Part shown: in pieces, positions 21,007 to 62,337 of the stretch
Layout of the letters: every line of letters begins with the position of its first letter
Numbering within the stretch: the stretch's first letter is position 1
NCBI GenBank assembly: GCA_964016885.1
Contig: OZ024764.1
Span: forward strand, 16,058,001 to 16,122,000
Origin: Eledone cirrhosa
Taxonomy: Eukaryota
Direction: 5' to 3'
Length of the DNA stretch: 64,000 nucleotides
Translations under genes and position numbers: made by a program
Notes under the pieces: model-generated
Seen by the model: only the letters and a program-made list of their open reading frames with translations
Told to the model about the DNA's origin: nothing
The model's database searches: none

Positions 21007-21228
21007 CACACACAAGCCGAAACCACTGGGCCGTATATGTATATATATATATATATATGAAAAATTCGGGACCCCAACGGCTGAACTTTAACAGCTAGAT
21101 CTAGCTGTTGAAACGGCAGGAGCTCAACCGTCGGGGTCCCGAATTTTTCATAATACCCCTCTAATAGTCTCAAGTATCGAGTACTCTGGTGAATAATGGT
21201 CTAACTGGTTTTTACTGCATCCATTCTG

Positions 21229-27300: not shown

Positions 27301-30300
27301 GTTGTAGTATAGCTGTGGTATAGTGTGGTAGGGTTGTAGTGTAGGTAGTGGTATAGTGTGGGAGGGTTGTGTTGTAGTATAGTGTGGTAGGGTTGTGTTG
27401 TAGTGTTGTGTTGTAGTATAGGTAGTAGTATAGTTAGTGGTAGGGTTGTGTTGTAGTGTAGGTGTTAGCTTTCTTTATTATCTAAAGTCCAATGTCTGTG
27501 TCAAGCCAAGTTGATGAGGCTGTCCTGGTTTCGTGGCATGAAGCGACTCAGCGGACAGGACCCCCCCCCCAGCGACACCACCACCAACAACACCGACACC
27601 ACCAGCAGCACCATCAACACCAACACCACCACCACCAACAACAACACCACCATCAACACCACCGACAACAACAACACCACAACCACCAGCACCGTCAACA
27701 ACACCACAACCACCACCAACAACACCACCGACACCACCAACACCACCAACACCACCACCACCACCACAATCATCAACACCACCACAACCACCACCACTGA
27801 CACCACCACCACCAACAACAACACCACCACCACCAACAACAACACCACCACCATCAATATCAACAACACAACCACCACCACCACCACCAACAACAACACA
27901 ACCACCACCACCGACACCACCACCACCAACAACAACACCACCACCACCAACAACAACACCACCACCATCAATATCAACAACACCACCGACACCACCATCA
28001 TCAACACCACCACAACCACCACCACCGACACCACCACCACCAACAACAACACAACCACCACCAACAACAACACCACCACCACCAACAACAACACAACCAC
28101 CACCACCGACACCACCACCACCAACAACAACACCACCACCACCAACAACAACACCACCACCATCAATATCAACAACACAACCACCACCACCATCATCAAC
28201 ACCACCACAACCACCACCACCGACACCACCACCACCAACAACAACACAACCACCACCAACAACAACAACACCACCACCATCAATATCAACAACACAACCA
28301 CCACCACCATCATCAACACCACCACAACCACCACCACCGACACCACCACCACCAGCAACAACACAACCACCACCAACAACAACAACACCACCACCATCAA
28401 TATCAACAACACCACCGACACCACCACCATCAACAACACCACCACCATCAATATCAACACCAACACAACCACCACCACCACCACCATCACCATCAACAAC
28501 ACCACCACCACCACAACTAACGCCACCTACACCACCACCACCATCACAACACCACCAACACCAACACCACCACCATCACAACTAACACCACCTACAACAC
28601 CACCACAACTAACGCCACCTACACCACCACCACCATCACAACACCACCAACACCACCACCACCACCACAACTAACGCCACCTACAGTCTGCCTGTCATCT
28701 TTTCTCCTCAGTCCACTGCTGGGACTACCGTCGTTTTGTTGTCAAGAACTCCACCAATGTCACCTTACAGGACGAGTTTGACTTCACAACAGCCAAGATC
28801 TGTAAGAATTTTTCCAATTACTCCTCCTGGCATTACCGTAGCAAGCTACTCCCACTACACCAGCCACACCCAACTGAGCCGCTTGCCACAAAAGAGGAGG
28901 CTCTTCTCAAAGGTAATTTTTTTTGCATCAGTTGTTAGCTGTCGAGACACTGCATCCCTTAAAACCTCCATGGAACAAACTACCTGCATCAGTTATTAGC
29001 TGTCGAGACACTGCATCCTTTAAAACCTCCATGGAACAAACTCCCTGCATCAGTTGTTAGCTGTCGAGACACTGCATCCTTTAAAACCTCCATGGAACAA
29101 ACTCCCTGCATCAGTTGTTAGCTGTCGAGACACTGCATCCCTTAAAACCTCCATGGAACAAACTCCCTGCATCAGTTGTTAGCTGTCGAGACACTGCATC
29201 CCTTAAAACCTCCATGGAACAAACTCCCTGCATCAGTTGTTAGCTGTCGAGACACTGCATCCTTTAAAACCTCCATGGAACAAACTCCCTGCATCAGTTG
29301 TTAGCTGTCGAGACACTGCATCCTTTAAAACCTCCATGGAACAAACTACCTGCATCAGTTGTTAGCTGTCGAGACACTGCATCCTTTAAAACCTCCATGG
29401 AACAAACTCCCTGCATCAGTTGTTAGCTGTCGAGACACTGCATCCCTTAAAACCTCCATGGAACAAACTACCTGCATCAGTTATTAGCTGTCGAGACACT
29501 GCATCCTTTAAAACCTCCATGGAACAAACTCCCTGCATCAGTTGTTAGCTGTCGAGACACTGCATCCTTTAAAACCTCCATGGAACAAACTCCCTGCATC
29601 AGTTGTTAGCTGTCGAGACACTGCATCCTTTAAAACCTCCATGGAACAAACTACCTGCATCAGTTGTTAGCTGTCGAGACACTGCATCCTTTAAAACCTC
29701 CATGGAACAAACTCCCTGCATCAGTTGTTAGCTGTCGAGACACTGCATCCTTTAAAACCTCCATGGAACAAACTCCCTGCATCAGTTGTTAGCTGTCGAG
29801 ACACTGCATCCCTTAAAACCTCCATGGAACAAACTCCCTGCATCAGTTGTTAGCTGTCGAGACACTGCATCCTTTAAAACCTCCATGGAACAAACTCCCT
29901 GCATCAGTTGTTAGCTGTCGAGACACTGCATCCTTTAAAACCTCCATGGAACAAACTACCTGCATCAGTTGTTAGCTGTCGAGACACTGCATCCTTTAAA
30001 ACCTCCATGGAACAAACTCCCTGCATCAGTTGTTAGCTGTCGAGACACTGCATCCCTTAAAACCTCCATGGAACAAACTACCTGCATCAGTTATTAGCTG
30101 TCGAGACACTGCATCCTTTAAAACCTCCATGGAACAAACTCCCTGCATCAGTTGTTAGCTGTCGAGACACTGCATCCTTTAAAACCTCCATGGAACAAAC
30201 TCCCTGCATCAGTTGTTAGCTGTCGAGACACTGCATCCTTTAAAACCTCCATGGAACAAACTACCTGCATCAGTTGTTAGCTGTCGAGACACTGCATCCT

Positions 30301-30702
30301 TTAAAACCTCCATACTTCCTGATATTCCCCCTCCATACACACACACACACGTATATCCTGACTCATACACTATTCACTTCCATGACATTTGTATATTATT
30401 CTATGTACTATACATGCACCTGAGCACTGTACACAATAATTTCATTATTATTATTTAAACACACACATACATTCATACAAACACACACATACATTCATAC
30501 TACTAAAGTGTTTCTTATTTTGTATTACAGAGTTTGAAATAGTCCAAAATGCCATGTTCACTGATCCTGATGACCAAAGTGCTTGGTTTTACCACAGATG
30601 GTTACTGGGCAGAGGTACATACTATATATATATATATACACCTTCTCTCATTTAACATAGCTTTCTATCTTTCTATCTCTATCTGTTTGTCTGTCTGTAT
30701 AC

Positions 30703-30736
<34 letters not shown>

Positions 30737-33700
30737 GTTTCTATCTATCTATCGCTGACCGAGCTGCAGTCCTGAGTCAAGCAAAGACCGAGGAAAATGG
30801 CCGATTGGCACATCGAATGTGCTCAGGCGCTCACAGCCCTCTGGCAGGCGGACCCGGCGATCAGTGGAGACTCCACTTCGTCATTCTATAGAGAGTTGAT
30901 CCGCAGCAAGTGCGACGACGTGCTCGGAGAAACTCTAGGTGTAGAGGAAGACGAACTGGCCAGTCTGTTCGGTAGGACCTACCGCCCGGGACCGATGGAC
31001 AACTTCCAAAAGTCCCTGACCCGGCAGTGCTACCGAGGAGCTCTACCAGTTTGAGACAAGCTCTACAGACATGGGCGCCCGGGCAGGGACCCTGCAAAAA
31101 GATCTGTCCGAGATGTGTGCGAGACGAAGAAACCGTCGCGCACGCATTCATACACTGCCCGGGCGTCACTGACCTGTGGGGCTATGTAGAACGACTATTG
31201 ACGCGGGTGGGACCAATCCGGTTGACCACCGAGTCCATTGTCATGATCAAACCGCCACCCTCCTTCAAAAACGAGGGAGAGGCGGTTTTCCTCTGTGTGA
31301 TAGCTATGGCGAAAGAGGTTGTATGGTGGACGAGGTTAAAAGGGCTGAGGTCAGACACCTTTCTCTCCGGCCAACAACTGATTCTTTTTTTCAAATACCA
31401 CTTTGGAAGAAGAATCAGGATGGAGAGAGAGGTGCTGTACCCCAGGATGGAGAGAGAGGTGCTGTACCCCAGGATGGAGGGAGAGGTGCTGTACCCCAGG
31501 ATGGAGGGAGAGGTGCTGTACCCCAGCAAGTTTTATGAAAGGTGGGTGAAAGTGGCGAGAATGGCCCGAGTGAATGGGCCTTCTCTCTATATCAGCCTGT
31601 AGGTTGAGGGAAGAGAGGAAAGGGGTACTCACTCTTCGAACTCCTGGAGATGAGGGTTGCACAGTTTTTTCGGGGGTACGTGTTACCCATATGTAATGTC
31701 TCCCCCTATTGGGGAAAATCGATTAATTTTTAAATTGCATTTGTGATAGTATTTTACATGTTTTTATTGTATGTAAACTTCCCCCTTTGTATTTGTCCCC
31801 TTCTTTTGTGCCCCTGTAGCTAATAAAGAAACATATCTATCTATATGCTGGCGTAAAGTTATTTCCCCTGCAACTGCCTTTTTTGTGGGGGTTGTCTTAT
31901 CTGGCGAATATAGGCCTAAACCTTAATTACATCTTAGAATTTTAAGGGTCAACCTATGCATCAGATCGACTTATACGCCGGCATATACAGTGTCTATCTA
32001 CCTACCTCCCTACATACCTCCCAACCTACCTACCTACCCACCTACCTACCTACCCACCTACCTACCTACCTACCTCCCAACCTACCTCCCTCCCTACCTA
32101 CCTACCTACCCACCTACCTATCTACCTACCAACCTGCCTACCTACCTACCTACCTCCCAACCTACCTCCCTCCCTACCTACCCACCTACCTACCTACCTC
32201 CCTACCTCCCTCCCTACCTACCTACCCACCTACCTACCTACCCACCTACCTACCTACCTACCTACCCACCTACCTACCTACCTCCCAACCTACCTCCCTC
32301 CCTACCTACCTACCTACCCACCTACCTATCTACCTACCTCCCTCCCTACCTACCTACCTACCCACCTACCTACCTACCTCCCAACCTACCTACCTACCTA
32401 CCTCCCTACCTACCTCCCAACCTACCTCCCTCCCTACCTACCCACCTACCTACCTACCTACCTCCCTCCCTACCTACCTACCTACCTACCTACCTACCTC
32501 CCTACCTCCCTACCTACCTACCTCCCCACCTACCTATCCACCTACCTACCTACCCACAAACCTCCCTACCTACCTATCTACCTCCCTCCCTACCTACCTA
32601 CCTACCTCCCTCCCTACCTACCTACCTACCAACCTGCCTACCTCCCTACCTACCTATCCACCTAACTACCTACCCACCAACCTGCCTACCTACCAACCTA
32701 CCTACCTACCTCCCTACCTACCTACCTACCTACCTCCCTCCCTACCCACCTACCTACCTACCTCCCTACCTACCTACCTCCCTCCCTACCTACCTACCTA
32801 TCTACCTACCTCCCTCCCTACCTACCTCCCTCCCTCCCTACCTACCTACCTACCTCCCCACCTACCTATCCACCTACCTACCTACCTACCAACCTGCCTC
32901 CCTACCTACCTCCCTACCTACCTACCTACCTACCTACCTACCTACCTACCTCCCTACCTACCTCCCAACCTACCTACCTCCCTCCCTACCTACCTACCTA
33001 CCTACCTCCCACCCTACCTACCTACCTACCAACCTACCTACCAACCTACCTACCTACCTACCTCCCTACTTACCTATCTACCTACCTCCCTCCCTACCTA
33101 CCTCCCCACCAACCTGCCTACCTACCAACCTACCTACCTCCCTACCTACCTACCTACCTACCTACCTCCCTACCTACCTACCTACCTCCCTACCTACCTA
33201 CCTACCTACCTCCCTACCTACCTACCTACCTACCTCCCTACCTACCTACCTACCTACCTACCTCCCTACCTACCTACCTACCCACCTACCTCCCTCCCTC
33301 CCTACCTACCTCCCAACCTACCTACCTCCCTACCTACCTACCTACCTCCCTACCTACCTACCTACCTACCTACCTGCCTACCTACCTCCCTCCCTACCCA
33401 CCTACCTACCTACCTACCTACCTCCCTACCTACCTACCTACCTCCCTACCTACCTACCCACCTACCTACCTACCTACCTCCCTACCTACCTACCTACCTC
33501 CCTCCCTACCCACCTACCTACCTATCTACCTACCTACCTCCCTCCCTACCTACCTACCTACCTACCTACCCACCTACCTACCTACCTACCCACCTACCTA
33601 CCTACCTACCTACCTACCTACCTACCTACCTACCTACCTATCTACCTCCCTCCCTACCTACCTCCCTACCTACCTACCTACCTACCTGTCTACCTACCTA

Positions 33701-34704
33701 CCTGTCTACCTACCTCCCTACCTACCTACCTACCTACCTACCTACCTACCTCCCTACCTACCTACCTACCTACCCACCTACCTGCCTACCTGTCTCTTCT
33801 AATCCTCTCTAATCTATTTCTAGGACAGATTACAGCAGAGATTCTGCAAGCCATTGTCTCCCCAACCAACAGCCTCATCGTCAGCTTCACCAAACCCATT
33901 CACCCAGTAAGTCCTCTCATCACACTTTAGCTATTATGACTATCTAAAGATCTGAGAGTCGCAATCGTGAGGTTGTGAGTTCGATTCCCAGACCAGGCGA
34001 TGCGTTATGTCCTTGAGCAAGACACTTTATTTTACGTTGCTCCTTCTACCTGGAGAAAGATAATAATAATAATAATTGTTTCTACTTTAGGCACAAGGCC
34101 AGCAATTACCCAGTGCATTACTGGTACTTTATTTTATCGACCCCGTAAGGTTGAAAGGCAAAGTCAACCTCGGCGGGATTTGAACTCAGATCGTAAAGGG
34201 ACGTAACTATGCTGGAAAGCATGGCGTCCGACCCTCTACCGATACTGCCAATCCACCGATAATAATAATAATAATGAAATTATTGTGTACAGTGCTCAGG
34301 TGCACTACAACTCATCAAAGGTGCATGTATAGTACATAGAATAATGTACAAATGTCAGGAAAATGAAGAGTGTATGAGTCATGATATAATAACAATAACA
34401 ATAATGAAATATTGTGTACAGTGCTCAGGTGCACCACAACTCATCAAAAAAGTGCATGTACAGTACATAGGGCAATGCACAAACATCAGTAAAATGAACA
34501 GTGCACGAGTCATGATACACACGTGTGCATGTGCATGGAACAATGGGAACATTGTTTCCTCAGTCCGATTTGTAGATGATATATATATATATATATGTTT
34601 ATATAGTTACATTCCAGGAACGTAACTATATTGATTATTTATTTAACTATATATGTTTATATATATATGTTTATTTATATATATATATATATGTGTGTGT
34701 GTGT

Positions 34705-34744
<40 letters not shown>

Positions 34745-34745
34745 T

Positions 34746-34782
<37 letters not shown>

Positions 34783-34783
34783 T

Positions 34784-34822
<39 letters not shown>

Positions 34823-34823
34823 T

Positions 34824-34858
<35 letters not shown>

Positions 34859-34889
34859 TTATATATATATATATATATATGTGTGTGTT

Positions 34890-34922
<33 letters not shown>

Positions 34923-34997
34923 TTATATATATATATATATATATGTGTGTGTTTATATATATATATATGTGTTCATGTATGTATATATGTGTGTTTT

Positions 34998-35028
<31 letters not shown>

Positions 35029-35096
35029 TTATATAGATATGTGTGTGTATATGTATGTATATATGTGTGTTTATATATATATATATATATGTTGTG

Positions 35097-35141
<45 letters not shown>

Positions 35142-35900
35142 TACATACAGAGTGGTCCCCAAAAAAGTAAACTTTGATTCCCTGCTCAGGCAACATCTAT
35201 AAGAATGCTGTTGATATGTGTATACATTTTTAGGGGACACCCTGTGTATGATGATGATGATGATGTATATATATATCTATATATGACACCCTGTGTATGA
35301 TGATGATGTATATATATATATAACACCCTGTGTATGATGATGATGTATATATCTATATATGACACCCTGTGTATGATGATGTATATATATATATATATCT
35401 ATATATATATGACACCCTGTGTATGATGATGTATGTATATATATATATGACACCCTGTGTATGATGATGATGTATATATCTATATATGACACCCTGTGTA
35501 TGATGATGTATATATATATATATATCTATATATATATGACACCCTGTGTATGATGATGATGTATGTATATATATATATATATGACACCCTGTGTATGATG
35601 ATGTATGTATATCTATATATGACAGCCTGTGTATGATGATGTATATATATATATATATATATATGACACCCTGTGTATGATGATGATGATGTATATATAT
35701 ATGACACCCTGTGTATGATGATGATGTATGTATATCTCTCTCTCTTCCAGGTAGAAAGCTGTGAGAAAGTGGAAGTTACCATCAATGGGACAGCTGTTAA
35801 CCCCTCCTCTGAACAATGGTACAACCCATTTCACACTGACTACTACAGCCCTGTGTGGATATCCTTTTTACCAGCACTACTACTACTACTACTACTACTA

Positions 35901-35931
<31 letters not shown>

Positions 35932-36014
35932 CACTACTACTACTGCTACTACCACTACTGCTACTACTACCACTATTACTACCACTACTACTACTACTAC
36001 CACTACTACTACTA

Positions 36015-36075
<61 letters not shown>

Positions 36076-39000
36076 CACTACTCTCTTCCTGATATTTCAA
36101 GCGTTAAACTAATATATTTCTTCCATGTAAAGTGCCATTTGTTTTGTTATTTCTGTTTACCTTTTACATACATATACACACACACACATATATACATATA
36201 CACATGTATATCATCATCATCATCATTTTACGTCCGCTCTTCCCTGCTTGCAAGGGTGGGACGGGTCCTATTAAGCACAGCATCTCTCCACTCGTCACGG
36301 TCCTTCGTCATCTCCACCGTGAGCTTCAATGATCTGAGGTCTGTTCTCACCACCTCCGCCCATGTTTTTCGTGGTCTACCTCTACCACGTCTTCCTTCAA
36401 CTGGCATTTCCTGGCACTTCTTCACCCATCAGTCATCCTCCATGCGCATCACATGTCCATACCACCTCAGTCTCCTCTCCCGTACACTACATTCTATTCC
36501 TCTCAGACACAGTTTCTCTCTCAACACATCACATGTCCATACCACCTCAGTCTCCTCTCCCGTACACTACATTCTATCCCTCTCAGACACAGTTTCTCTC
36601 TCACCACATCACATGTCCATACCACCCCAGTCTCCTCTCCCGTACACTACATTCTATCCCTCTCAGACACAGTTTCTCTCTCACCACATCACATGTCCAT
36701 ACCACCTCAGTCTCCTCTCCCGTACACTACATTCTATCCCTCTCAGACACAGTTTCTCTCTCACCACATCACATGTCCATACCACCCCAGTCTCCTCTCC
36801 CGTACACTACATTCTATCCCTCTCAGACACAGTTTCTCTCTCACCACATCACATGTCCATACCACCTCAGTCTCCTCTCCCGTACACTACATTCTATCCC
36901 TCTCAGACACAGTTTCTCTCTCACCACATCACATGTCCATACCACCTCAGTCTCCTCTCCCGTACACTACATTCTATTCCTCTCAGACACAGTTTCTCTC
37001 TCAACACATCACATGTCCATACCACCTCAGTCTCCTCTCCCGTACACTACATTCTATCCCTCTCAGACACAGTTTCTCTCTCAACACATTTATGCTGGGT
37101 CGTTCACGCACATTTACACTGCACATCCAACGGAGCATGCTTGCCTCATTTCTCTCCAGCCGTCGCATATCCTCTGCAGTTGCTGCCCATGTCTCACTAC
37201 CATGCAGCATCACGCTCCTCACACAGGCATCATACAACCATATATATATATATATATTTAAAATCCGCTTGGATTATCTATTTATTTTGGGATCGGAAAC
37301 CGCGGTAAAGACACATAGTAAGTACAGTGAACTTTTTGAAATTTATTTTAAAACTTTTTCTCTGTTTGCTAAACCTTGATTTTATATGTTCTGGCATGTT
37401 AATTTATTAGCCTGCCATTTATTAGCCTACCATTGAACCACACTGACATACGGTTGGACAATATTTGTATCCCTATATGTATTTTTTACATGTAGGAACA
37501 CATATTTTATTATATATATCATCATCATCATCATTTCATTTTACGTCCACTTTTCCCTGCTTGCAAAGGTGGGACGGGAACTGATTCTGGCTTGATTTCG
37601 ACAGCTGGATGCCCTTCCTAACACCAACCTCATTTACAGTGAGTGCTGGGTGCTTTTTTGCCGTGGCACCTCCACGACCACTTTACAGTGGAATGATAGG
37701 GACCCCAGTCCTTATCATCTCATTTCTACAGCTGAGTAAACTGGAGCAATGTGAAATAAAGTGTCTTGCTCAAGGAAACAACACATCACCCGGTCTGAGA
37801 ATTGAACTCACAACCTTTCCATTGCAAGGCCAATGCTCTAACCACTAAGCCATGTGCCTTCATATATATATATATATGATAATGATGATGATGATGATGT
37901 ATATATATATATTCCGTCAGTAGCCGAAATTCTATATAAATGTCATCACTTCCTTGACTGGTCAGTAAATTCTTCAACTTCCTGATGAGATCGTGTTTGG
38001 CAGTCCCCAACTGGACGTGACTGTTACATTGACTGTTGGTTCCAAGTCCCAGGCCAGCTGTAGCCTCTCTGTCACCAATGTCAAGGGTCAAACCTGTTCT
38101 TCTTCGTCGAATATCAACATGGAAACTATTTTCAAGTTGGTTCCATTTTTTTCCATGTTTTTTTTTGGGGGGGGGGTGGTATGTGGTGGTATGTTTGTGT
38201 GTGTATGGTGGTGTGGGGGGGGGTATGTATGTGTGTGTGTGATGATGTGTGTATGTGTGTAGCTGTGTGTGTGTGGTAGTATGTACTACCACCACCACTA
38301 CTACTACCACCATTACTCTGTATTTTCAGCTCAGAACTCAGTGCTGCTAAAACTGCCATCTTGGAGAAGGAATTAGAAATCATTCAAGAACTTTTGCAAT
38401 TGGAGACTGAGAACAAATGTTAGTGTTGTTACTGTTGTTTCATTATATAGTAGAAGTGCAAGAAAGTATAACATTAAAATGTAATGGAAGCCTAAAGACG
38501 CAATTAAAAGTTTTCAGTAATGAAAAGTAAAATATCGTATTACAGTTACAAAAAAAATTCTAAATAAGCCTACAAGGTAAAAATTAAAAACGGTCATCGC
38601 AGGCCGGATTGTGGCCCGCGGGCCGCCTGTTGCACACCCCTGTTCTACTGTATATTTATCTGTATCTGTGTGTTCTTGTTGCAGGGGCCATGTTAACAGT
38701 TGTGCAGTTGATGCAGGCGTTAAATTCGCTGCACTATAATACAGATATACATCGCTACCTGGACAAACTGAGGGAGATTGACCCAACAAGGAACAACTAC
38801 TACATGGATTACAGTAAGTCAACTTCTCCTTAGGGGATTCTTTTGTTTAGGGACCTTTCCCTGTCACTATGTTGCCTCTTACACACTTCTTTATAGATAA
38901 GACCCCATTCTCTACTGTAGTGTCCATGTATAATACCCCACTCTCCACTGTAGTGTCCTTATATAAGACCCCACTCTCTACTGTAGTGTCCTTATATAAA

Positions 39001-40554
39001 ACATCACTCTCTACTGTAGTGTCCGTATACAAGACCCCACTCTCCACTGTAGTGTCCTTATATAAGACCCCACTCTCTACTGTAGTGTCCTTATATAAGA
39101 CCCTACTCTCTACTGTGGTGTCCATATACAAGACCCCACTCTCTACTGTAGTGTCCTTATATAAGACCCCACTCTCTACTGTAGTGTCCTTATATAAAAC
39201 ATCACTCTCTACTGTAGTGTCCGTATACAAGACCCCACTCTCCACTGTAGTGTCCTTATATAAGACCCCACTCTCTACTGTAGTGTCCTTATATAAGACC
39301 CTACTCTCTACTGTGGTGTCCATATACAAGACCCCACTCTCTACTGTAGTGTCCTTATATAAGACCCCACTCTCTACTGTAGTGTCCTTATATAAGAGGC
39401 CCTCAGTACATTACTGGTACTTTATTTTATCGACCTCGTAAGGATGAAAGGCAAAGTTAACCTCGGCGGGATTTGAACTCAGAATGGCAAGGGCCGTAAC
39501 TCTTTGCGTCAAAACATGGCGTCCGACCCTCTACCGATACTGCCAATCTACTGCCCTAATAATATTAATAATAATAATAATTTTAGATAATAGAGTTATG
39601 GCCCTTTACGTTCTGAGTTTATATCCCGCTGAGGTTAACTTTGCCTTTCATCCTTACGGGGTCGGTAAAATATAGTACCAGTAATACACTGGGGTAATTT
39701 CTGGCCTTGTGCCAAAAGTAGAAAAAAATTATTATTATTATTTTTATCTTTTGTTGTATTTCAGAAAGTAAAATGGCGATAGAAAACCAGATAAAGTCAT
39801 TGAGTGGCAGTGAAAGTAAAGTTGTACTTAAGGGACTTGATGTCTCTACAGTTTATCATCTGGAACATCTTATGTCAGTTCCAGATCTGGACTTCTCCTC
39901 CAACAACATCTCTTGTCTACACATGTTTGCCTATCTACAGTGTGTGCAGCACCTGAACCTCGACCACAACTGGGTCACATCTGTTGAGGGCCTCCACCAT
40001 CTGCCAGACCTCACACGCCTATCCCTCTCTCACAACTGTATCCTTTCCGCTTACTTTCTATGCTTTGTTTGTGTTTACTGTGTTTCAGTGTATGTCCGTG
40101 CTGTGGCACTACCACCAGGGGGAGCTATGGTGAGACCAACACCAGGGGGAGCTGTAGTGGCACCACCACCACTGTATATATATATATATGATGGGGGCAC
40201 ATGGCTTAGTGGTTAGAGCATTGGCCTTGCAATCGAAAGGTTGTGAGTTCAATTCTCGGACCGGGTGATGTGTTGTTTCCTTGAGCAAGACACTTTATTT
40301 CACATTGCTCCAGTTTACTCAGCTGTAAAAATGAGATGATAGGGACTGGGGTCCCTATCATTCCACTGCAAAGTGGTCGTGGAGGTGCCACGGCAAAAAA
40401 GCACCCAGCACTCACTGTAAATAAGGTTGGTGTTAGGAAGGGCATCCAGCTGTAGAAATCAAGCCAGAACCAGTTCTTGTCCCACCCCTGCAAGCAGGGA
40501 AAAGCGGACGTAAAGTGATGATGATGATGATATATATATATATATATACACTGG

Positions 40555-40585
<31 letters not shown>

Positions 40586-42078
40586 GTTTAACAAGGTTCA
40601 ATGAATTCATCAATGAATATAGTTTTACAATAGATTAGAAGCACTCTACAGTAAGGTTTTCTGGAGTTATTAATATTACTTCAAAATATTAATAAATATA
40701 GACATTCATGTGATCAAATATATTTTATTATATATAGTTCAGAGGTACTGAGCTATTTCAACATTACGTCCTCATCAGATAAAATAAGTTGATGTCTGAC
40801 ATACCTTGACTATGTTGATGGTTATAATACTGTCATGACTAAATTATAACCATCAACATAGTCAAGGTATGTCAGACATCAACTTATTTTATCTGATGAG
40901 GACGTACTGTTGAAATAGCTCAGTACCTCTGAAATATGTATAATGATATATATTTGATCACATGAATGTCTATATTTATTAATATTTTGAAGTAATATAT
41001 CATCATCATCATCGTTTAACGTCCATCTTCCACGCTTGCATGGGTTTGGACGGGAGTTTTCCCACTTGAGGCAAGAGTGGTTGTCTTGCTCGCATAGGAC
41101 TGTCTGGCGGTTTTTATACGGCTGGATGCCCTTCCTAACACCAACCACGTTTACAGTGTGGACTGGGAGGTTTTTACCGTGTTACCTACACGGCCACATT
41201 ACAGCGTGGACTGTGTGTTTTTTTTGTCGTGACACCTACACGACCTCATTTGTTTCGGGCTGGATGTTGTGGTACCAACATAACTTTACATTGAAAGGGG
41301 TGGTGTAGATGGCAGTGGGGGTAGTGGGACGGGGGTGTATTTTGTTAGAGGTGCCTACTGACTGTAGTAGGTTTCACTTTGTACTTAGGCAAGGCGGGTC
41401 TTCTGTATAACTGTGTCGCGCCAAAGATCTCGGTCCAGTGACATTGTCTTGGAGAGGTGTAAGTGTGTGAGGTCGGAATTTATCAAGTCTTCCCAGGTTT
41501 TTCTGGGTCTGCCTACTCCGTGGCTACCGTCTATCTTTATTGCCCTGCACTTTTTTATACAGCTGTCATCTTTCATGCGCATCACGTGACCATACCAACG
41601 TAGTCTTCTCTCGAGTAAACAACATCTGATCCCGCTTATTTCTAATTTTTCCCTTAGTTCGTTTATGCTTTCCCGTTCACGTATATTACTATTACACATC
41701 CAGCGGAGCATGCAAGCTTCGTTTCTCTCCAGTCTGCGTATATCCTCTGCACACAATGCCCAGGTCTCACTGCCATGTAACATTGCTGTTCGTATGCAGG
41801 CATCATACAGCCTGCCTTTCATTTTATATATATATATACACACTTTGTTGTTTTGTCTAGCACTATACTTTTAAATGTGTTTATATCTCATTATTGTCCC
41901 TTAACTGTTAACTTCAGCTCTGTCGAGTGTCGAGGACTTGCGCCCTCTCCAGTCATGTGCAGCCCTCAAAGAACTGAATCTAGAAGGTAACCCTCTTGCA
42001 GAAGACGACCCTGAGTATCGCACCTCTGTACGACAGCTTCTACCCCAGCTGACACTGATTGACGGTGAGTCCCAGTAG
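20834..42078 (+). CDS. RABGGTA: Rab geranylgeranyltransferase type II alpha subunit, whole gene (13 coding exons, 1722 nt, 573 aa)
   Basis: Spliced translation [13 protein letters not shown]...[12 protein letters not shown]...[11 protein letters not shown]...DERNFHCWDYRR...[12 protein letters not shown]...[18 protein letters not shown], then the Ig-like region and C-terminal LRRs. All exon phases are consistent. Confidence 0.96.
21545..22115. repeat. GGT/GTA-rich degenerate satellite
   Basis: Direct inspection. Confidence 0.9.
22172..22282 (+). CDS. RABGGTA: RABGGTA exon 2
   Basis: ccag|[37 protein letters not shown]|gtatgt. Confidence 0.95.
22347..23066 (-). repeat. 71-bp array of the same MITE, opposite orientation, starting at an intact TIR
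   Basis: TTAACCCTTTAGCATTTACATTACTCTATATATAC...; reverse complement of the 17905 unit. Confidence 0.9.
23494..23618 (+). CDS. RABGGTA: RABGGTA exon 3
   Basis: tag|[41 protein letters not shown]|gtaggt. Confidence 0.95.
23683..26204. repeat. 51-bp minisatellite, about 49 copies
   Basis: Unit TAGTCCTAGATACACTGTGTCTGTATATAAGACAGGACACATTAGATAATG. Confidence 0.97.
26265..26452 (+). CDS. RABGGTA: RABGGTA exon 4
   Basis: cag|[33 protein letters not shown]...EIDERN|gtaagt. Confidence 0.96.
26460..28685. repeat. GTGTAG-rich satellite (26460-27465) followed by ACC/AAC trinucleotide tract (27570-28685)
   Basis: Direct inspection; fills RABGGTA intron 4. Confidence 0.92.
28712..28912 (+). CDS. RABGGTA: RABGGTA exon 5
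   Basis: cag|[10 protein letters not shown]...[16 protein letters not shown]...EEALLK|gtaatt. Confidence 0.95.
28925..30455 (+). repeat. 61-bp minisatellite (about 23 copies) derived from a CR1/Jockey-like LINE 3' end, followed by that LINE's 3' UTR
   Basis: Unit encodes [20 protein letters not shown], the same as the end of the LINE at 58383-59069. Confidence 0.92.
30531..30614 (+). CDS. RABGGTA: RABGGTA exon 6
   Basis: cag|[27 protein letters not shown]|gtacat. Confidence 0.95.
30750..31830 (+). mobile_element. 5'-truncated L1/Tx1-like LINE (C-terminal zf-RVT CCHC region, frameshifted) with 3' UTR
   Basis: [18 protein letters not shown]...LWGYVE motif; GC-rich; AATAAA near 31822; internal 27-bp x4 duplication. 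Confidence 0.8.
31995..33790. repeat. (CCTA)n degenerate microsatellite
   Basis: Direct inspection. Confidence 0.95.
33824..33906 (+). CDS. RABGGTA: RABGGTA exon 7
   Basis: tag|[27 protein letters not shown]|gtaagt; phases fit. Confidence 0.88.
35751..35858 (+). CDS. RABGGTA: RABGGTA exon 8
   Basis: cag|[36 protein letters not shown]|ATATCCTTT (U12 donor). Confidence 0.88.
36205..37240 (-). mobile_element. RTE-clade LINE 3' fragment with internal 80-bp x8 array (36450-37088)
   Basis: [16 protein letters not shown]...[10 protein letters not shown]...GRPRKTW, with (GAT)n tail. Confidence 0.9.
37520..37863 (-). mobile_element. Composite tRNA-head SINE with RTE-like (GAT)n tail
   Basis: Near-identical reverse complement of 40191-40530. 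Confidence 0.88.
37969..38135 (+). CDS. RABGGTA: RABGGTA exon 9
   Basis: [24 protein letters not shown]...METIF|gttggt. Confidence 0.82.
38330..38418 (+). CDS. RABGGTA: RABGGTA exon 10
   Basis: cag|[29 protein letters not shown]|gttagt. Confidence 0.93.
38685..38813 (+). CDS. RABGGTA: RABGGTA exon 11
   Basis: cag|(W)[12 protein letters not shown]...[13 protein letters not shown]|gtaagt. Confidence 0.93.
38897..39397. repeat. 33-bp minisatellite, about 15 copies
   Basis: Unit AAGACCCCACTCTCTACTGTAGTGTCCTTATAT. Confidence 0.93.
39765..40037 (+). CDS. RABGGTA: RABGGTA exon 12 (LRR domain)
   Basis: cag|SKMAIENQ...LDFSSNNI...[28 protein letters not shown]|GTATCCTTT. Confidence 0.93.
40191..40530 (+). 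mobile_element. Composite tRNA-head SINE with RTE-like tail
   Basis: TGGCTTAGTGGTTAGAGC A-box, GAGTTCAATTC B-box, ends GGACGTAAAGT(GAT)n. Confidence 0.88.
40673..40998. repeat. Long inverted repeat (about 155-bp arms, about 14-bp spacer)
   Basis: Arms are reverse-complementary with few mismatches. Confidence 0.95.
41385..41825 (-). mobile_element. RTE-clade LINE 3' ORF fragment
   Basis: [20 protein letters not shown]...[12 protein letters not shown]...GRPRKTW. Confidence 0.9.
41918..42078 (+). CDS. RABGGTA: RABGGTA exon 13 (terminal; LRR cap)
   Basis: [52 protein letters not shown]; a possible alternative donor g|gtgagt lies at 42065. Confidence 0.9.
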
Positions 42079-43292: not shown

Positions 43293-43530
43293 TAATTAGA
43301 AAGTGAACAACACAAGATATAACTACTCCATTAGCAAAGGTTTCTGGATCACAGACGGTAATAAAATATGTCAGGATTGTTCATCAGACAGAGATGTTAT
43401 AGATAAAAGATATCTTTTATCTATAACATCTCTGTCTGATGAACAATCCAGACATATTTTATTACCGTCTGTGATCCAGAAACCTTTGCTAATGGAGTAG
43501 TTATATCTTGTGTTGTTCACTTTCTAATTA
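43293..43530. repeat. Spacer-less palindrome (119-bp arms)
   Basis: Centre at 43411/43412; one mismatch seen. Confidence 0.95.
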
Positions 43531-43744
43531 TATATATATATATTTATATATATAATTGACTTCTACAGAACCAAAACTGTTTCGTATGAAATCATCAGAA
43601 TAATTTCATATGAATGAAACAGTTCTAGTCCTGTAGAAGTCATTTCTGTATAAAATAAAAATGCTTATACTCTACCAATGCCTTGAGTACCTTTTTTTAA
43701 CTGTAGTTACTCCCCAACACAACTCAGGAATCTACATTATTTAT

Positions 43745-44640
43745 ATATCATCATCATCATCGATTAACGTCCATCTTCCACACTTGCATGGGTTAGACGG
43801 GTTTGTCCCATTTAGAGGCAAGCTGGGTCGGGTGAGCATGTCTCGATCATTGTCAATGATGATGCTACACCAGTCATTGGGTATGACCCCATTTTGTATT
43901 ACTTGGTTTACTATCCGGGTAACTAGGGTATGTCCCACCATCCCAAATGCTTTCAACATCTCAGCAACTTAGCCCGAAGGTCCAGCTGCCTTGCCTGTCT
44001 TCATATTTCTGATTTCCTTACTTACTATACTACTACTGCTAACTTGCACAGCTGGTCCCCCTGTTGAGTCAATGTGGAGCAAACTATCTTTATCCCATTT
44101 ATTCTCCTCATTTAGTAGTCTCTTGTAGTGGTACTTCCATACTACCTTCTTATCAGTGAGGGCAAGTACTCCGTGATCATTGTGGACACACTTCTCTCCA
44201 ACAATATCACAATTTTCCTTGCAATTCTGAACACTTTACACCTTTGGTCCTCACATTGCAGAAAATTCTTAAATTTTTTTCTTGTTTCTCTTCTTGCAAA
44301 GACACTTGTCACCTCGCTTCTCTCCTAGTCTCCTAGCCTCCTGAGTGTTCTTTGCTTCTGCCATCCTGCCATTCTTTCTATACCTGCCTTTTGGCTTTAA
44401 TTGTCTCCTCCACTACGAAGTTACACTCTTCCCTGAAGGTCTTCTCCAGCCACAGATTTCATTTGTTGCCTTCAGTAGATTATCTTTCAGGAATTCCCAC
44501 TGTTCCTCTATATTGCATGTCCCTATTTGCTCTTCCTTACTGTCAAAAGCGTCAAGTAACATGCCTTTAAATTTGTTACTGGCTGTGGGGTCCTTCAACT
44601 TCTACATTCTTCTCCTCAAGAAGCCTGACTGTAAGGTCGC
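43745..44640 (-). mobile_element. Degenerate RTE LINE fragment (endonuclease-RT linker region)
   Basis: EEQWEFLKDNLLKATNEICGW; KAAGPSG...EMLKA...VIPNDWCS. Confidence 0.75.
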
Positions 44641-45259: not shown

Positions 45260-45382
45260 CTAAACTTTGGGTTTTAATTGGTTCTTTATAATTTCTTCTC
45301 TTTGTTGTTCTTTAGCTGCCACCCTTTCCTTGTGTGCCTCTTTAGCCTCCATTATCTCTGCAACATATGTAGCCACTGTCGA
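45260..45382 (-). CDS. MRPL52: MRPL52 exon 5
   Basis: cag|STVATYVAEIMEAKEAHKERVAAKEQQREEIIKNQLKPKV*. Confidence 0.92.
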   Translation of the reverse strand, partial: STVATYVAEIMEAKEAHKERVAAKEQQREEIIKNQLKPKV

Positions 45383-48300
45383 CTGAAGAGAAAAGAAAAA
45401 TAGAAGAAAGGATGGTAATACTTCAAAAATTATTACTGCATTTCCCAGCATTGAAGACTGCTTTTTTCCTAAAATAAGTCTCAAAAATCTACCATGCATC
45501 CTGGAGGCCGAACGTTGTTCATTATTTTTTTTCAAAGGTGGTGGATTGGCAGTATCGGTAGAGGGTCGGATGCCATGCTTTGACGCATAGCGTTAGCCAT
45601 TCTGAGGTTAACTTTGCCTTTCATCCTTACAGGGTCGATAAAATAAAGTACCAGTAATGTACTGGGCTAATTGCTGGCCTTGTGCCAAAAGTAGAAACAA
45701 TTATTATTGTTTTAAGGGCAGTTGACTGGCAGTATTGGTGGAGGGTCTGACACCATACTTTGCAGCATAAAGTTATGGCCTTGTGCCAAAAGTAGAAACA
45801 ATTATTTTTTTTGAAATTTTTGGTTGTCAAAATTAGGGTCCGTCCTCGAGGACGAAGTATCTTTGGTGCCAGGAAATATGGTAATATTCTTTTGTTCTCT
45901 TCCTATTCACATAATTTCTGAGCTGACTAATTTAGTTATAAATATCTACAAATGGAAGCTATGGAGTAGGAAGACCCAGGAAGACTTGGGACGAGGTGAT
46001 AAAAGCTGACCCATAGGATGGAGATCTTTGGTGTTTTGCAGTAATACAGAGGACACGTCTTCCCATGTGCACAGACTCAAACATACCTAGTAGGCACCTC
46101 TTAACCACTATAAACCCACTACTCCTGTCCACACCACCTTTACACTGTGAACATTCATACATACATCCCATAATTTCTTTTTCACTTATATATAAGCATA
46201 TACAAACACAATACCTGTATAAAAGATAGGACACATTAAATAATGTAGTCCTAGGTACACTGTGTCTGTATATAAGACAGGACACATTAGATAATGTAGT
46301 CCTAGGTACACTGTGTCTGTATATAAGACAGGACACATTAGATAATGTAGTCCTAGATACACTGTGTCTGTATATAAGACAGGACACATTAGATAATGTA
46401 GTCCTAGGTAAACTGTGTCTGTATATAAGACAGGACACATTAGATAATGTAGTCCTAGATACACTGTGTCTGTATATAAGACAGGACACATTAGATAATG
46501 TAGTCCTAGATACACTGTGTCTGTATATAAGACAGGACACATTAGATAATGAAGTCCTAGATACACTGTGTCTGTATATAAGACAAGACACATTAGATAA
46601 TGTAGTCCTAGATACACTGTGTCTGTATATAAGACAGGACACATTAGATAATGTAGTCCTAGATACACTGTGTCTGTATATAAGACAGGACACATTAGAT
46701 AGTGTAGTCCTAGATACACTGTGTCTGTATATAAGACAGGACACATTAGATAATGTAGTCCTAGATACACTGTGTCTGTATATAAGACAGGACACATTAG
46801 ATAATGTAGTCCTAGGTAGACTGTGTCTGTATATAAGACAGGACACATTAGATAATGTAGTCCTAGATACACTGTGTCTGTATATAAGACAGGACACATT
46901 AGATAATGTAGTCCTAGATACACTGTGTCTGTATATAAGACAGGACACATTAGATAATGTAGTCCTAGATACACTGTGTCTGTATATAAGACAGGACACA
47001 TTAGATAGTGTAGTCCTAGATACACTGTGTCTGTATATAAGACAGGACACATTAGATAATGTAGTCCTAGATACACTGTGTCTGTATATAAGACAGGACA
47101 CATTAGATAATGTAGTCCTAGGTAGACTGTGTCTGTATATAAGACAGGACACATTAGATAATGTAGTCCTAGATACACTGTGTCTGTATATAAGACAGGA
47201 CACATTAGATAATGTAGTCCTAGATACACTGTGTCTGTATATAAGACAGGACACATTAGATAATGTAGTCCTAGATACACTGTGTCTGTATATAAGACAG
47301 GACACATTAGATAGTGTAGTCCTAGATACACTGTGTCTGTATATAAGACAGGACACATTAGATAATGTAGTCCTAGATACACTGTGTCTGTATATAAGAC
47401 AGGACACATTAGATAGTGTAGTCCTAGATACACTGTGTCTGTATATAAGACAGGACACATTAGATAATGTAGTCCTAGATACACTGTGTCTGTATATAAG
47501 ACAGGACACATTAGATAGTGTAGTCCTAGATACACTGTGTCTGTATATAAGACAGGACACATTAGATAATGTAGTCTTAGATACACTGTGTCTGTATATA
47601 AGACAGGACACATTAGATAATGTAGTCCTAGATACACTGTGTCTGTATATAAGACAGGACACATGAGACAATGTAGTCCTAGATACACTGTGTCTGTATA
47701 AAAGACAGGACACATTAGACAATGTAGTCCTAGATACACTGTGTCTGTATATAAGACAGGACACATGAGACAATGTAGTCCTAGATACACTGTGTCTGTA
47801 TATAAGACAGGACACATGAGACAATGTAGTCCTAGATACACTGTGTCTGTATATAAGACAGGACACATTAGATAATGTAGTCCTAGATACACTGTGTCTA
47901 TAAAAAAAGGATGGTTACAACTGGAACATCCTTGATCATAGGTCTGCTGGATCAAGGCTGACCAGGGGATAAATAATGACAGAATCAAATCAAACAATAT
48001 ACTCACTGCCATTTCAATTCTCTTCTTCCGTCTTACAACCTGCCGCATGCTGAGTTCTGAGGGTCGGCCATCTATGGAAGGGGGCAGAGAGAAGGACAAT
48101 AACAGGTTAGCTGGGATTTCAGTAGAAAAAGACGCAACATTACTACAATATATGTTGCTACTCACAGGTCCTAAATAATAGTGGGGGGGGGGGAATAAGC
48201 GGGAAGAGGTCGGTAATTTTTCTAGGCAACACACTAGGATCGACTTTCCCTTTTCTCCAAAAATTTGTTGGCCTTCAGTCTAAATCAGAAATTTATTATA

Positions 48301-52628: not shown

Positions 52629-54154
52629 GATTTCGTAAGAAAAACATTAAACAACGGGAGACAACTCTGTTTAGCCGGTGTTTCTCACAGAAATTCCTTC
52701 CACTGAATTTTTTGTCCTGGCTGGGAACGCTCGGCTCTTGGATAATCGAACCCCCACTCCCCACCCCTGCTCTTATTCCAACTTCCCCACTTATTGAATT
52801 TTGATAATCTATCTCAGGTGAAATTTTATTTTAAATGGTAGCATTTCTGCGGCAATTAATTTTCTTTGGACATTAAAAGAATTCATTACTAGAAATCCTA
52901 TATATTATAAAATAAATAGGATGGGTTGGGGGTCTCAATATGTAAACTAAACGATTAATTCTGGTATTTAAAATAATTCAAGCGAGACACAAACTAGAAA
53001 AGTTACTGATTTGGGCTCATAAAGTCATGGGTTTGATTCCTGGACTAGGTTGTGTGCTGTATTCTTGAGCAAAACACTTCATTTCATGTTGCTCCAGTAT
53101 ACTCAGCTGAAAATGAGTACCAGCAGCAATGGCTGGGGGTTTAACCATGTGATGGACTGGCGTCCTGTCCAGGGGAGTCTTGTACTATCAGTCACTTCAC
53201 GCCATGAAATCAGGATAAGCACCAGCCTTGGGGCAGACTTGAACTCTGCAATGGACTGGGGTCCTCTTGTCTTCCTTTAGTTGTAGATTCCTTATGTTCA
53301 GTAATGTCCTTTCCGACCATAATTATGCCGGTGACGTAAGCATAAGTCTAATTTATTATTTAATGAAGGGTAGATCCTTCGATAGTGGAGGCACGTGACC
53401 TAGTGGTAAGTGTGTTGGTCTTACGATCATATGTGGCTTCCATTCCTGGACTGGGTTCATTGTTGTGTTCTTGAGCAAAACATTTCATTTCACATTGCTC
53501 CAATATACTCAGCTGAAAATCAGTACCAGAAATAGCTGGGGTGGCTAAACCTGCAGTGGACTGACGTCATGTCCAGTGGGTAGTCTTGTATTCTCAGAGA
53601 AAGAGAGTCAAAGTATGAAATGAGAAATGAGAGGGTTATAGACAGAGATAAGTGAAGAGGAGGAGAGGAGAAAAATGAAAAATAATAACAGTCAAAATTT
53701 TAGATAAGTAATGCCTGGTACTTAACCCTTTTGCATTTAAACCAGCCATGCTAGCGTGGAAGATGGATGTTAAACGACGATGATGATGATGATGATGTAT
53801 CTGGCCAAAATTCTCTCACCTCTTTCTGTTCAAACCGGCTGCAACCGGCCATAAATACTGATTTTAAGGTATTGTTTTCAAAATAAATATTATCAAAATC
53901 TCATAGATTTGATATAATGTGAGATAATTATAATAATGAAATTGTGTACAGTGCTCAGGTGCATTACAACTCATCAAAGGTGCATGTCTTGTACATAGAA
54001 TAATGTACAAATGTCAGGAAAATGAACAGTGTATGAGTCGTGAAATACATCTGTGCGTGTGTATAGAGGTGGGATATCAGGTATAGTGTTGTCAAGATCA
54101 TCTAGCTGACTATAAGTGACCTTATAGTCAGCTAGATGATCTTGACAAGCGAGG

Positions 54155-61234: not shown

Positions 61235-61355
61235 GAAAAAAATGTTCAAGACCCCGACGGCAGAGCTCAAGCCGTTTCGACGGCTATTTCTGGACTCCAG
61301 AAATAGCCGTCGAAACGGCTTGAGCTCTGATGTCGGGGTCATACCTTTTCCTATA

Positions 61356-61400
<45 letters not shown>

Positions 61401-61665
61401 GTAGTTCGGATCTATATATATATATATATATATATACATAGATACATAGTTCGGATCTAGCTGTCGAAACGGCTTGAGCTCTGCCGTCGGGATCTTGAAC
61501 ATTTTTCGATATGTAGAAATATATGCATAGTTCGGATCTAGCTGTCGAAAAGGCTTGAGCCCTGCCGTCGGGGTCTTGAACATTTTCCTATTACCCACTC
61601 TGCTACCCAAAGTATTGAGTACTCTGCTGCGTTATGGTCCACCTGGTTCCTTACCACACTTCCTT
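61235..61665. mobile_element. Hairpin-rich dispersed element (GACCCCGACGGCAGAGCTCAAGCCGTTTCGACAGCTAG units); also at 21059-21530 in opposite orientation
   Basis: Shared about 130-bp unique core plus repeated and inverted subunits embedded in TA tracts. Confidence 0.65.
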
Positions 61666-61774: not shown

Positions 61775-62115
61775 AATGTGTTTAAAATACCATAGTAATT
61801 AAATATATAGTATGTATGTATTGTCTATATATTTAACCCCATTCGGTTATTTACACATGGCGATCGTTGAAAGAGTTTTTTTTTCTTTCATCTTTTATTC
61901 CTTTGTACACACACACATATATATATTAACTAACTATAATATAATATATATATAATTGTTTCTACTATTGGCACAAGGCCAGCAATTACCCAGTGCATTA
62001 CTGGTACTTTATTTTATCGACCCCGTAAGGATGAAAGGCAAAGTTAACCTATATAGAGAGAGATAGAAATGGCTTCTACAGGACTAGAACTGTTTCATTC
62101 GAAGGAAATCATCAG

Positions 62116-62167
62116 GGATTTCCTGATGATTTCTCTCGAATGAAACAGTTCTAGTCCTGTAGAATCC
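62116..62167 (+). ncRNA. Type I hammerhead ribozyme-like motif (Penelope-type); a mirror copy lies on the - strand within palindrome 62063-62175
   Basis: GGATTTC-CTGATGA-tTTCtctcGAAt-GAAA-CAG-ttctagtc-CTG-TA^GAATCC; stems I, II and III can all form. Confidence 0.6.
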
Positions 62168-62289
62168 ATTTCTATATTAAATCTTATATATATATATACT
62201 AAAGTATATAGTATATATAGTAACTATACTATCTATTGAGTACTTTACTTACTGTGGTGACCCCCGATTGAACACGGAACTCACGCACA

Positions 62290-62337
<48 letters not shown>

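Follow-up and report, generated by a model that had tools for sequence, protein, structure and literature searches.

A palindromic, hammerhead-bearing repeat with the organisation of a probable Penelope-like element insertion stump

The palindrome located at positions 62063-62175 of the window, meaning the whole 64-kb stretch of DNA which was analysed, belongs to a repeat family of very high abundance. Its organisation is probably that of a dead insertion stump of a Penelope-like element (PLE), likely of the Hydra clade, in which two 5'-truncated, hammerhead-bearing 3' ends lie head to head within a (TA)n target and the hairpin formed by the arms is predicted to block cutting (Table 1).

Table 1 Features of the palindrome, of its flanks and of the surrounding window
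Feature	Position	Strand	Description
Prenyltransferase-alpha/LRR gene exons	28675-42075	+	PPTA and LRR matches; likely Rab geranylgeranyltransferase alpha
Second family copy	43550..43745		Head-to-head, more diverged, with a different junction; (TA)n on the left
Mitoribosomal mL52 exons	45263-45592 and near 50115	-	Tail to tail with the PPTA/LRR gene
Left flank	62050..62062		TA/GA microsatellite, likely a decayed (TA)n target; follows a SINE-like repeat
Left arm	62063..62116	-	Short, 5'-truncated; core CTGATGA 62115-62109, GAAA 62096-62093, GTA 62079-62077
Complete type I hammerhead motif, Hydra-clade style	62116..62167	+	Descriptor match; architecture as given in File S2 of PMC8557442 and as in loci L021/L056
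Head-to-head junction	62117..62121		Five loop bases, forming the 5' strand of stem I in the + arm; from the fold and the family letters upstream of the core
Proximal tail, common to the family	62168..62182	+	High depth to 62182; alignment with the second copy
AT-rich, (TA)n-expanded stretch	62183..62228	+	Takes the place of ~12 bases of the family, among them the 5' strand of the tail hairpin
Distal tail, same element	62229..62292	+	TTGAGTAC at 62236-62243; on this side only; right end approximate
Right flank	62293..62334		(TA)n; target-site duplication unreadable in the microsatellite

The palindrome and its hammerhead motif

The inverted arms (62063-62116 and 62122-62175) pair over 54 bp with 3 mismatches around a 5-nt loop, and the fold has a predicted energy of -84.2 kcal/mol (z -17.7), a stability equalled by 0 of 200 shuffled sequences. 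A palindromic element at 62063..62175, proposed in the first-pass annotation, is thus borne out, as is the description of its left arm as the reverse complement of the right, with 3/54 mismatches. The limits assigned to the element stand for the palindrome core and have to be revised at the 3' end, which had been set too short, the + arm extending to about 62292.

On the + strand, stem I (62116-62122/62162-62167) is 6 bp long, contains a single bulged U (62119) and is followed by the core CTGATGA at 62123-62129, a stem II of 3 bp (62131-33/62138-40) and GAAA at 62142-62145. Stem III has 4 bp, A15.1-U16.1 included, and is closed by a CTAG-centred loop III of 8 nt; the GTA triplet places the predicted cut after 62161. 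Descriptor and fold both confirm these stems, the core and the position of the predicted cut as they were originally written. Of 200 shuffled versions of the window, made block by block with dinucleotides preserved, only 7 contain a match to the three-stem descriptor (0.035 per 64 kb on average), so that the motif is not a product of chance.

The elements CUGANGA, GAAA and NUH occur in type I order on both strands. The three stems which close the core are present in the + arm (6 with the bulge, 3 and 4 bp) and not in the - arm, where stem I amounts to 1 bp. The left arm also lacks a long tail and terminates 14 nt beyond its predicted cut site. The initial reading of hammerhead cores on both strands therefore holds in full for the + strand, while on the - strand it holds for the core and for stems II and III and fails for stem I; because that arm is truncated and the letters upstream of it belong to the other arm, leaving a single pair, what it carries is a core and not a complete ribozyme. 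The appearance of ribozymes on both strands, with the two cores separated by 7 nt, is a by-product of the inverted join and not a two-strand device.

At positions 10.1/11.1 the + arm presents a U-U (62130/62141) and the G10.1-C11.1 pair is absent, which had been put forward as a ground for doubting activity. This argument has to be dropped. The U-U is usual in Hydra-clade PLEs (14 of the 25 families, by our own count from File S2 of PMC8557442, two of the 14 having one motif in common), and U10.1-U11.1 is described in PMC3088659 as naturally occurring and as the best tolerated mismatch at that position. As 14/25 published families of the clade carry it, the U-U is a clade trait and not a sign of decay.

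Doubt on activity at this locus arises instead because the 54-bp hairpin buries both cores and because the - strand is without stem I. When the whole palindrome was constrained to the hammerhead fold, the predicted energy was -14.3 vs -84.2 kcal/mol, corresponding to a probability of about 5e-50; as few as 8 extra bases of the left arm bring the probability of the hammerhead fold to 5e-12, and the isolated + arm, with a value of 9e-5, is itself predicted to misfold in a calculation which ignores tertiary contacts. The locus is accordingly predicted to be inactive, with its hammerhead buried by the hairpin. Pairing of loop III between two molecules has a predicted energy of -12.8 kcal/mol, which would be in line with the published dimer model, and the hammerhead is an inherited cargo, likely functional in the RNA of the parent element, where it may have acted as a dimer or been assisted by a protein.

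In the Rfam search no hammerhead match was returned for the palindrome, where the matches were microRNA-type hairpins alone, below gathering scores. The blank is uninformative, because the same motif was also missed in two metagenomic controls linked to open reading frames (ORFs), L021 and L056.

The window is animal DNA, perhaps cephalopod-like in its repeats, rich in (TA)n/(CA)n and in SINE-like repeats, and other palindromes are found in it, with arm mismatches of 5/156, 1/119, 2/45 and 0/28. An unrelated one with 156-bp arms, at 40673-40998 between two LRR exons, has CTGATGA..GAAA on both arms, of which the - arm, with a stem I of 8 bp, satisfies the hammerhead descriptor; it likely belongs to another PLE family. 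The near-perfect palindrome at 43293-43530 (119-bp arms, 1 mismatch, no loop) adjoins the second family copy across (TA)n and has on each arm a CTGATGA with GAAA far from it, without fitting the descriptor. A further repeat family, with fold-back and tandem pieces at 61250-61340, 61458-61575, 21056-21152 and 21312-21527 (7 blastn matches), has GTCGAAAC preceding CTG, which is not the type I order. The perfect palindrome at 54089-54148, with 28-bp arms, lacks a hammerhead core and is matched nowhere else in the window.

Relation to Penelope-like elements

The closest likeness is with the Hydra-clade PLEs with C-terminal endonuclease (EN+) described by Craig et al. 2021 (PMC8557442), which, as presented in that paper, carry ctgatgat-stem II-tgaa-acag..ctgt-a near the 3' end, with the U-U and with (TA)n targets. 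In its File S2, the hammerhead ctgatgat-stem II-tgaa-ac with U-U is listed in 14/25 families and the stem III acag/ctgt in 4/25, and almost all families of the clade are reported to prefer (TA)n. An inverted truncated copy accounts for the entry of Penelope-13_HM there with its hammerhead on both strands, and an inverted 5'-truncated copy has the corresponding effect here. The differences from the clade as published there are a total insertion of <250 bp in which no ORF was seen and which matches no consensus listed there, Hydra-1_Obim included, a loop III of 8 nt vs 0-3 in the table of the paper, and a stem II of only 3 bp in the palindrome copy. Both a canonical hammerhead near the 3' end and insertion into (TA)n, the characters by which the clade was judged, were found; neither is exclusive to it.

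Searching metagenomes with a generic pattern of the motif returned 77 loci, 14 of which (15 sites) have stems I and II. The remaining 63/77, all 6 viral loci included, were taken as chance, and L061 meets the stem criteria but sits in bacterial coding DNA. By blastn, none of the 77 belongs to the family of the palindrome, and a family-specific pattern gave 0 matches in the metagenomes. By tblastn, 6 of the 14 stem-bearing loci (5/13 contigs) adjoin RT-like ORFs. L021:1-2936 is a complete Hydra-type PLE, with a 745-aa ORF between two hammerhead-bearing direct repeats, of which the full ORF is missed by Pfam and PDB searches and the hammerhead by Rfam; L056 has the same motif at an ORF-end/ORF-start junction.

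Beyond the hammerhead, a tail hairpin of the form RCTC...TTGAGYAC is common to L021, L056, Hydra-2_Amil and the family of the palindrome. L021 and L056 are the sole two of the 14 loci to have the hairpin GCTC...TTGAGCAC ~55 nt beyond the cut; in the supplement of PMC8557442 the GCTC hairpin is carried by Hydra-2_Amil too, and nearly by Hydra-2_Ajap. The family studied here has ACTC...TTGAGTAC, a compensatory version of GCTC...TTGAGCAC. The Naiad_Mmer consensus of the same supplement also bears the tail hairpin. A second ORF family (L016/L017, L040, L048) has the U-U motif without the tail hairpin, showing that the motif is not restricted to Hydra; this group is possibly another PLE lineage.

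In L016/L017, a 929-aa ORF, which has a YMDD-like motif and is unmatched in Pfam, lies between two U-U hammerheads. L012, L015, L023 and L037 resemble the L016 group in their motif, which in several members of the group is followed by AGCAAGA. Positions 62075-62094 of the window and the 3' region of Naiad_Mmer, as printed in PMC8557442, agree at ~20/22 letters in a comparison made by eye and post hoc; the likeness is antisense to the hammerhead arm, and the TTGAGTAC hairpin lies downstream.

A connection with PLEs and an inverted insertion structure had been anticipated and are supported; a reverse transcriptase (RT)/GIY-YIG ORF, the other part of that proposal, could not be tied to the family, none being found in the window. 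Pfam found no PLE RT or GIY-YIG in the window ORFs (22 long and 148 shorter, drawn from 159 non-repetitive ORFs of at least 55 aa, with 6 of the shortest left out), a weak result given that the L021 ORF is also missed, and neither the L021 nor the L016 ORF gave a tblastn match in the window at E 1. Comparison of the family with the consensuses in the supplement of PMC8557442 gave 0/6 exact terms, in a document where line breaks can hide matches; the octopus Hydra consensus printed there carries a different hammerhead. Judged from these shared motifs, the element appears to work like a PLE end and is likely a member of the Hydra clade.

Other systems resemble the locus in part. The minimal hammerheads of metazoan PLEs presented by Cervera and De la Pena 2014 (PMC4209133) are likewise type I, dispersed in high copy, covarying, and palindromic at the centre of loop III. 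Closely spaced pairs on opposite strands are a further point in common, reported there at 100-700 bp, but the cores of the palindrome are just 7 nt apart; U-U replaces their G10.1-C11.1, and the motif is not a minimal one because stem III has 4 pairs. A head-to-head repeat with a tail at one end in an AT-rich target recalls the inverted-pLTR units described for Adineta vaga Penelope families (Arkhipova et al. 2013, PMC3846280) and for Poseidon_Ac (Frangieh et al. 2024, PMC11167929); unlike in those units, only two ends are left, the tail is longer than the usually cited 30-40 bp, and the target-site duplication is unreadable. Finally, non-LTR retrozymes (PMC7229834; bioRxiv 10.64898/2026.07.22.740005) are also reported as non-coding, PLE-related and equipped with a type I hammerhead, but as direct tandem units of 170-400 nt, whereas both window copies are inverted; because of this arrangement, the locus yields no unit between two cuts.

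The repeat family and the origin of the inverted join

At 80% likeness, the stretch 62030-62270 is covered by 16,192 contigs in organism A, 14,464 in organism B and 45 in organism C, together with 8,392 raw reads in organism A; these counts include pieces of the tail and TA-rich pieces and are not copy numbers. Family copies which end at 62063 have T for G at 62056/58/60/62, that is (TA)n (31-45 contigs per run). On the other side, family joints run from 62182 to 62229 with 12 other letters between them, so that 62183-62228 is a local AT-rich expansion. The distal tail is traced by read and contig depth to 62270 and beyond that point by alignment with the second copy alone.

In both window copies (2/2), the tail is present on one end only, reaching ~130 nt past the cut at the palindrome, and the other arm ends ~14 nt past the cut in (TA)n. 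In the second copy the short arm is on the - strand and the + arm bears the tail, its core being truncated so that the core start is absent. Other inversion points occur in the family (joints 62100>62138, 62101>62138 and 62112>62146): an inverted 5'-truncated copy with a variable junction is therefore found in the family itself.

Covariation among genomic copies was detected at one stem I pair, C-G vs A-U. At 62118 most of the family depth (61-75% in runs X1, X4 and X21) reads C, and at 62165 most of it (78-90%) reads G; the + arm described here has A and T at these positions, so that the pair is kept as A-U. These are unphased variants of the family as a whole, drawn through an 80% filter which favours copies that are conserved. 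The change 62117 G>A was left out, because reads of the other arm yield the same letter. Among the best 40 of 93 differences, the sole core position is the free N7 (mirror position 62111; 25% in X4), and most others lie in loop II, outer stem I, the tail or the flank. Taken together, the stem I covariation and the restriction of core variation to N7 may indicate that selection acted on the fold of the RNA in the parent family.

The available accounts of PLE insertions describe heavy 5' truncation, often with an inverted truncated copy, a tail on one end and head-to-head joins, and hammerhead pairs on opposite strands have been seen in schistosome. The anole PLE protein, predicted to be a dimer, is reported to nick and extend both strands of AT-rich DNA and to start at two internal RNA sites which bound the tail; the anole hammerhead cuts only with the protein and is dispensable for insertion in vitro. 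In a corresponding scheme for the palindrome, after nicks made by the RT-GIY-YIG protein of the element in the two strands of AT-rich DNA, reverse transcription would begin at two internal RNA sites, on opposite strands. The near start, 14 nt past the cut site, would give the short arm and the far start the long arm with its tail; both cDNAs would halt early around the hammerhead, and their truncated ends would then be joined head to head.

Whether the arms come from one RNA or from two is a narrower question, on which we lean slightly towards two different templates. Of the stem I variants, the + arm has the minority A-U pair and the - arm the majority G, and the + arm of the second copy is more alike to the arms at 62063-62175 (31-32/34) than to its own partner (28/34); these differences favour two templates over a fold-back, on a comparison of two copies only. 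A less probable account, which shares the PLE origin, is that a single RNA or cDNA folded back and was self-primed or template-switched, the arm differences being acquired later. Self-priming has been proposed in PMC3846280 from palindromes at inverted PLE junctions, the divergence of the arms is not far above that of the other palindromes of the window, and certain family junctions fall within the self-complementary stem II; against this, the difference between A-U and G would need two later complementary changes, reversion or conversion, and the second copy has a + arm closer to the palindrome than to its own partner, in a comparison of two copies only. Furthermore, we consider as a tentative model that such copies are twin insertions, in which a dimeric PLE complex copies two RNAs onto opposite strands, to be joined where both stall at the hammerhead; the arms may then differ in subfamily, and part of the family may have become a free mini-element made of hammerhead and tail, whose tandem unit of 77 nt would, if the model is true, be less than half the size of the described animal retrozymes.

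That the family as a whole is a self-standing, retrozyme-like non-autonomous mini-element of hammerhead and tail, moved in trans by a PLE protein, appears improbable. Many loose ends begin at 62119-62120 without a common upstream sequence, the upstream ends being short and in poor agreement (0.43-0.56), so that no common long upstream body is seen; a direct tandem joint, 62166 to 62120, joins the hammerhead and 30 letters at a period of 77 nt (15 starts among 75 reads, in run X21 only), and animal retrozymes have been reported as PLE-derived. The same poor agreement is expected from mixed subfamilies with heavy 5' truncation, however, and junctions differ from copy to copy; the tandem may come from a single locus or a handful of loci, or be a partial tandem of the ordinary sort, and it is the one joint seen that could represent the direct partial tandems (pLTRs) of EN+ PLEs; non-LTR retrozymes are described as 170-400 nt tandem units with canonical hammerheads. 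Less likely still is a MITE or fold-back DNA transposon in which the hammerhead likeness is due to chance or to an old capture. Although the element is short, palindromic, very abundant and flanked by TA, its centre varies among copies, its tail is one-sided and most contigs do not cross a palindrome centre; the uniform length and centre, the symmetry of the ends and the constant target-site duplication which mark a MITE were not found, the duplication being unreadable in the microsatellite. The covariation in stem I and the confinement of core differences to N7 (within the best 40 of 93) also oppose a MITE, as does the sharing of motif and tail hairpin with ORF-bearing PLEs. We regard as least plausible of all a working two-strand ribozyme device, self-cleaving in both polarities, viroid-like or serving as a host RNA-processing signal. 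The core and GUA do occur on both strands and the + motif is intact, but the - arm is without stem I, the hairpin is ~70 kcal/mol better than the hammerhead fold and the + arm of the second copy is without the core start. The reading as a truncated, inverted PLE insertion is the preferred one.

Implications for Penelope-like elements

As a single locus, the palindrome is of minor importance, being an ordinary PLE insertion stump of a known kind. What it adds is a very abundant hammerhead-bearing PLE family which Rfam misses, and which repeat pipelines could file as a MITE. Neither a description of the family nor PLE inversions from two templates were found in a search of open-access papers; the supplements of PMC4209133/PMC13282606 may contain the family.

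Long double-stranded RNA is a substrate for A-to-I editing or small-RNA processing. If transcribed, the hairpins of these palindromes would be substrates for the same pathways.

In the published accounts, the formation of inverted junctions in PLEs is unsettled between self-priming and priming on both strands, and the family could provide natural data on this process. If arms of mixed subfamily prove true, thousands of copies with stem I pairs which mark the subfamily would decide between two templates and self-priming from sequence alone.
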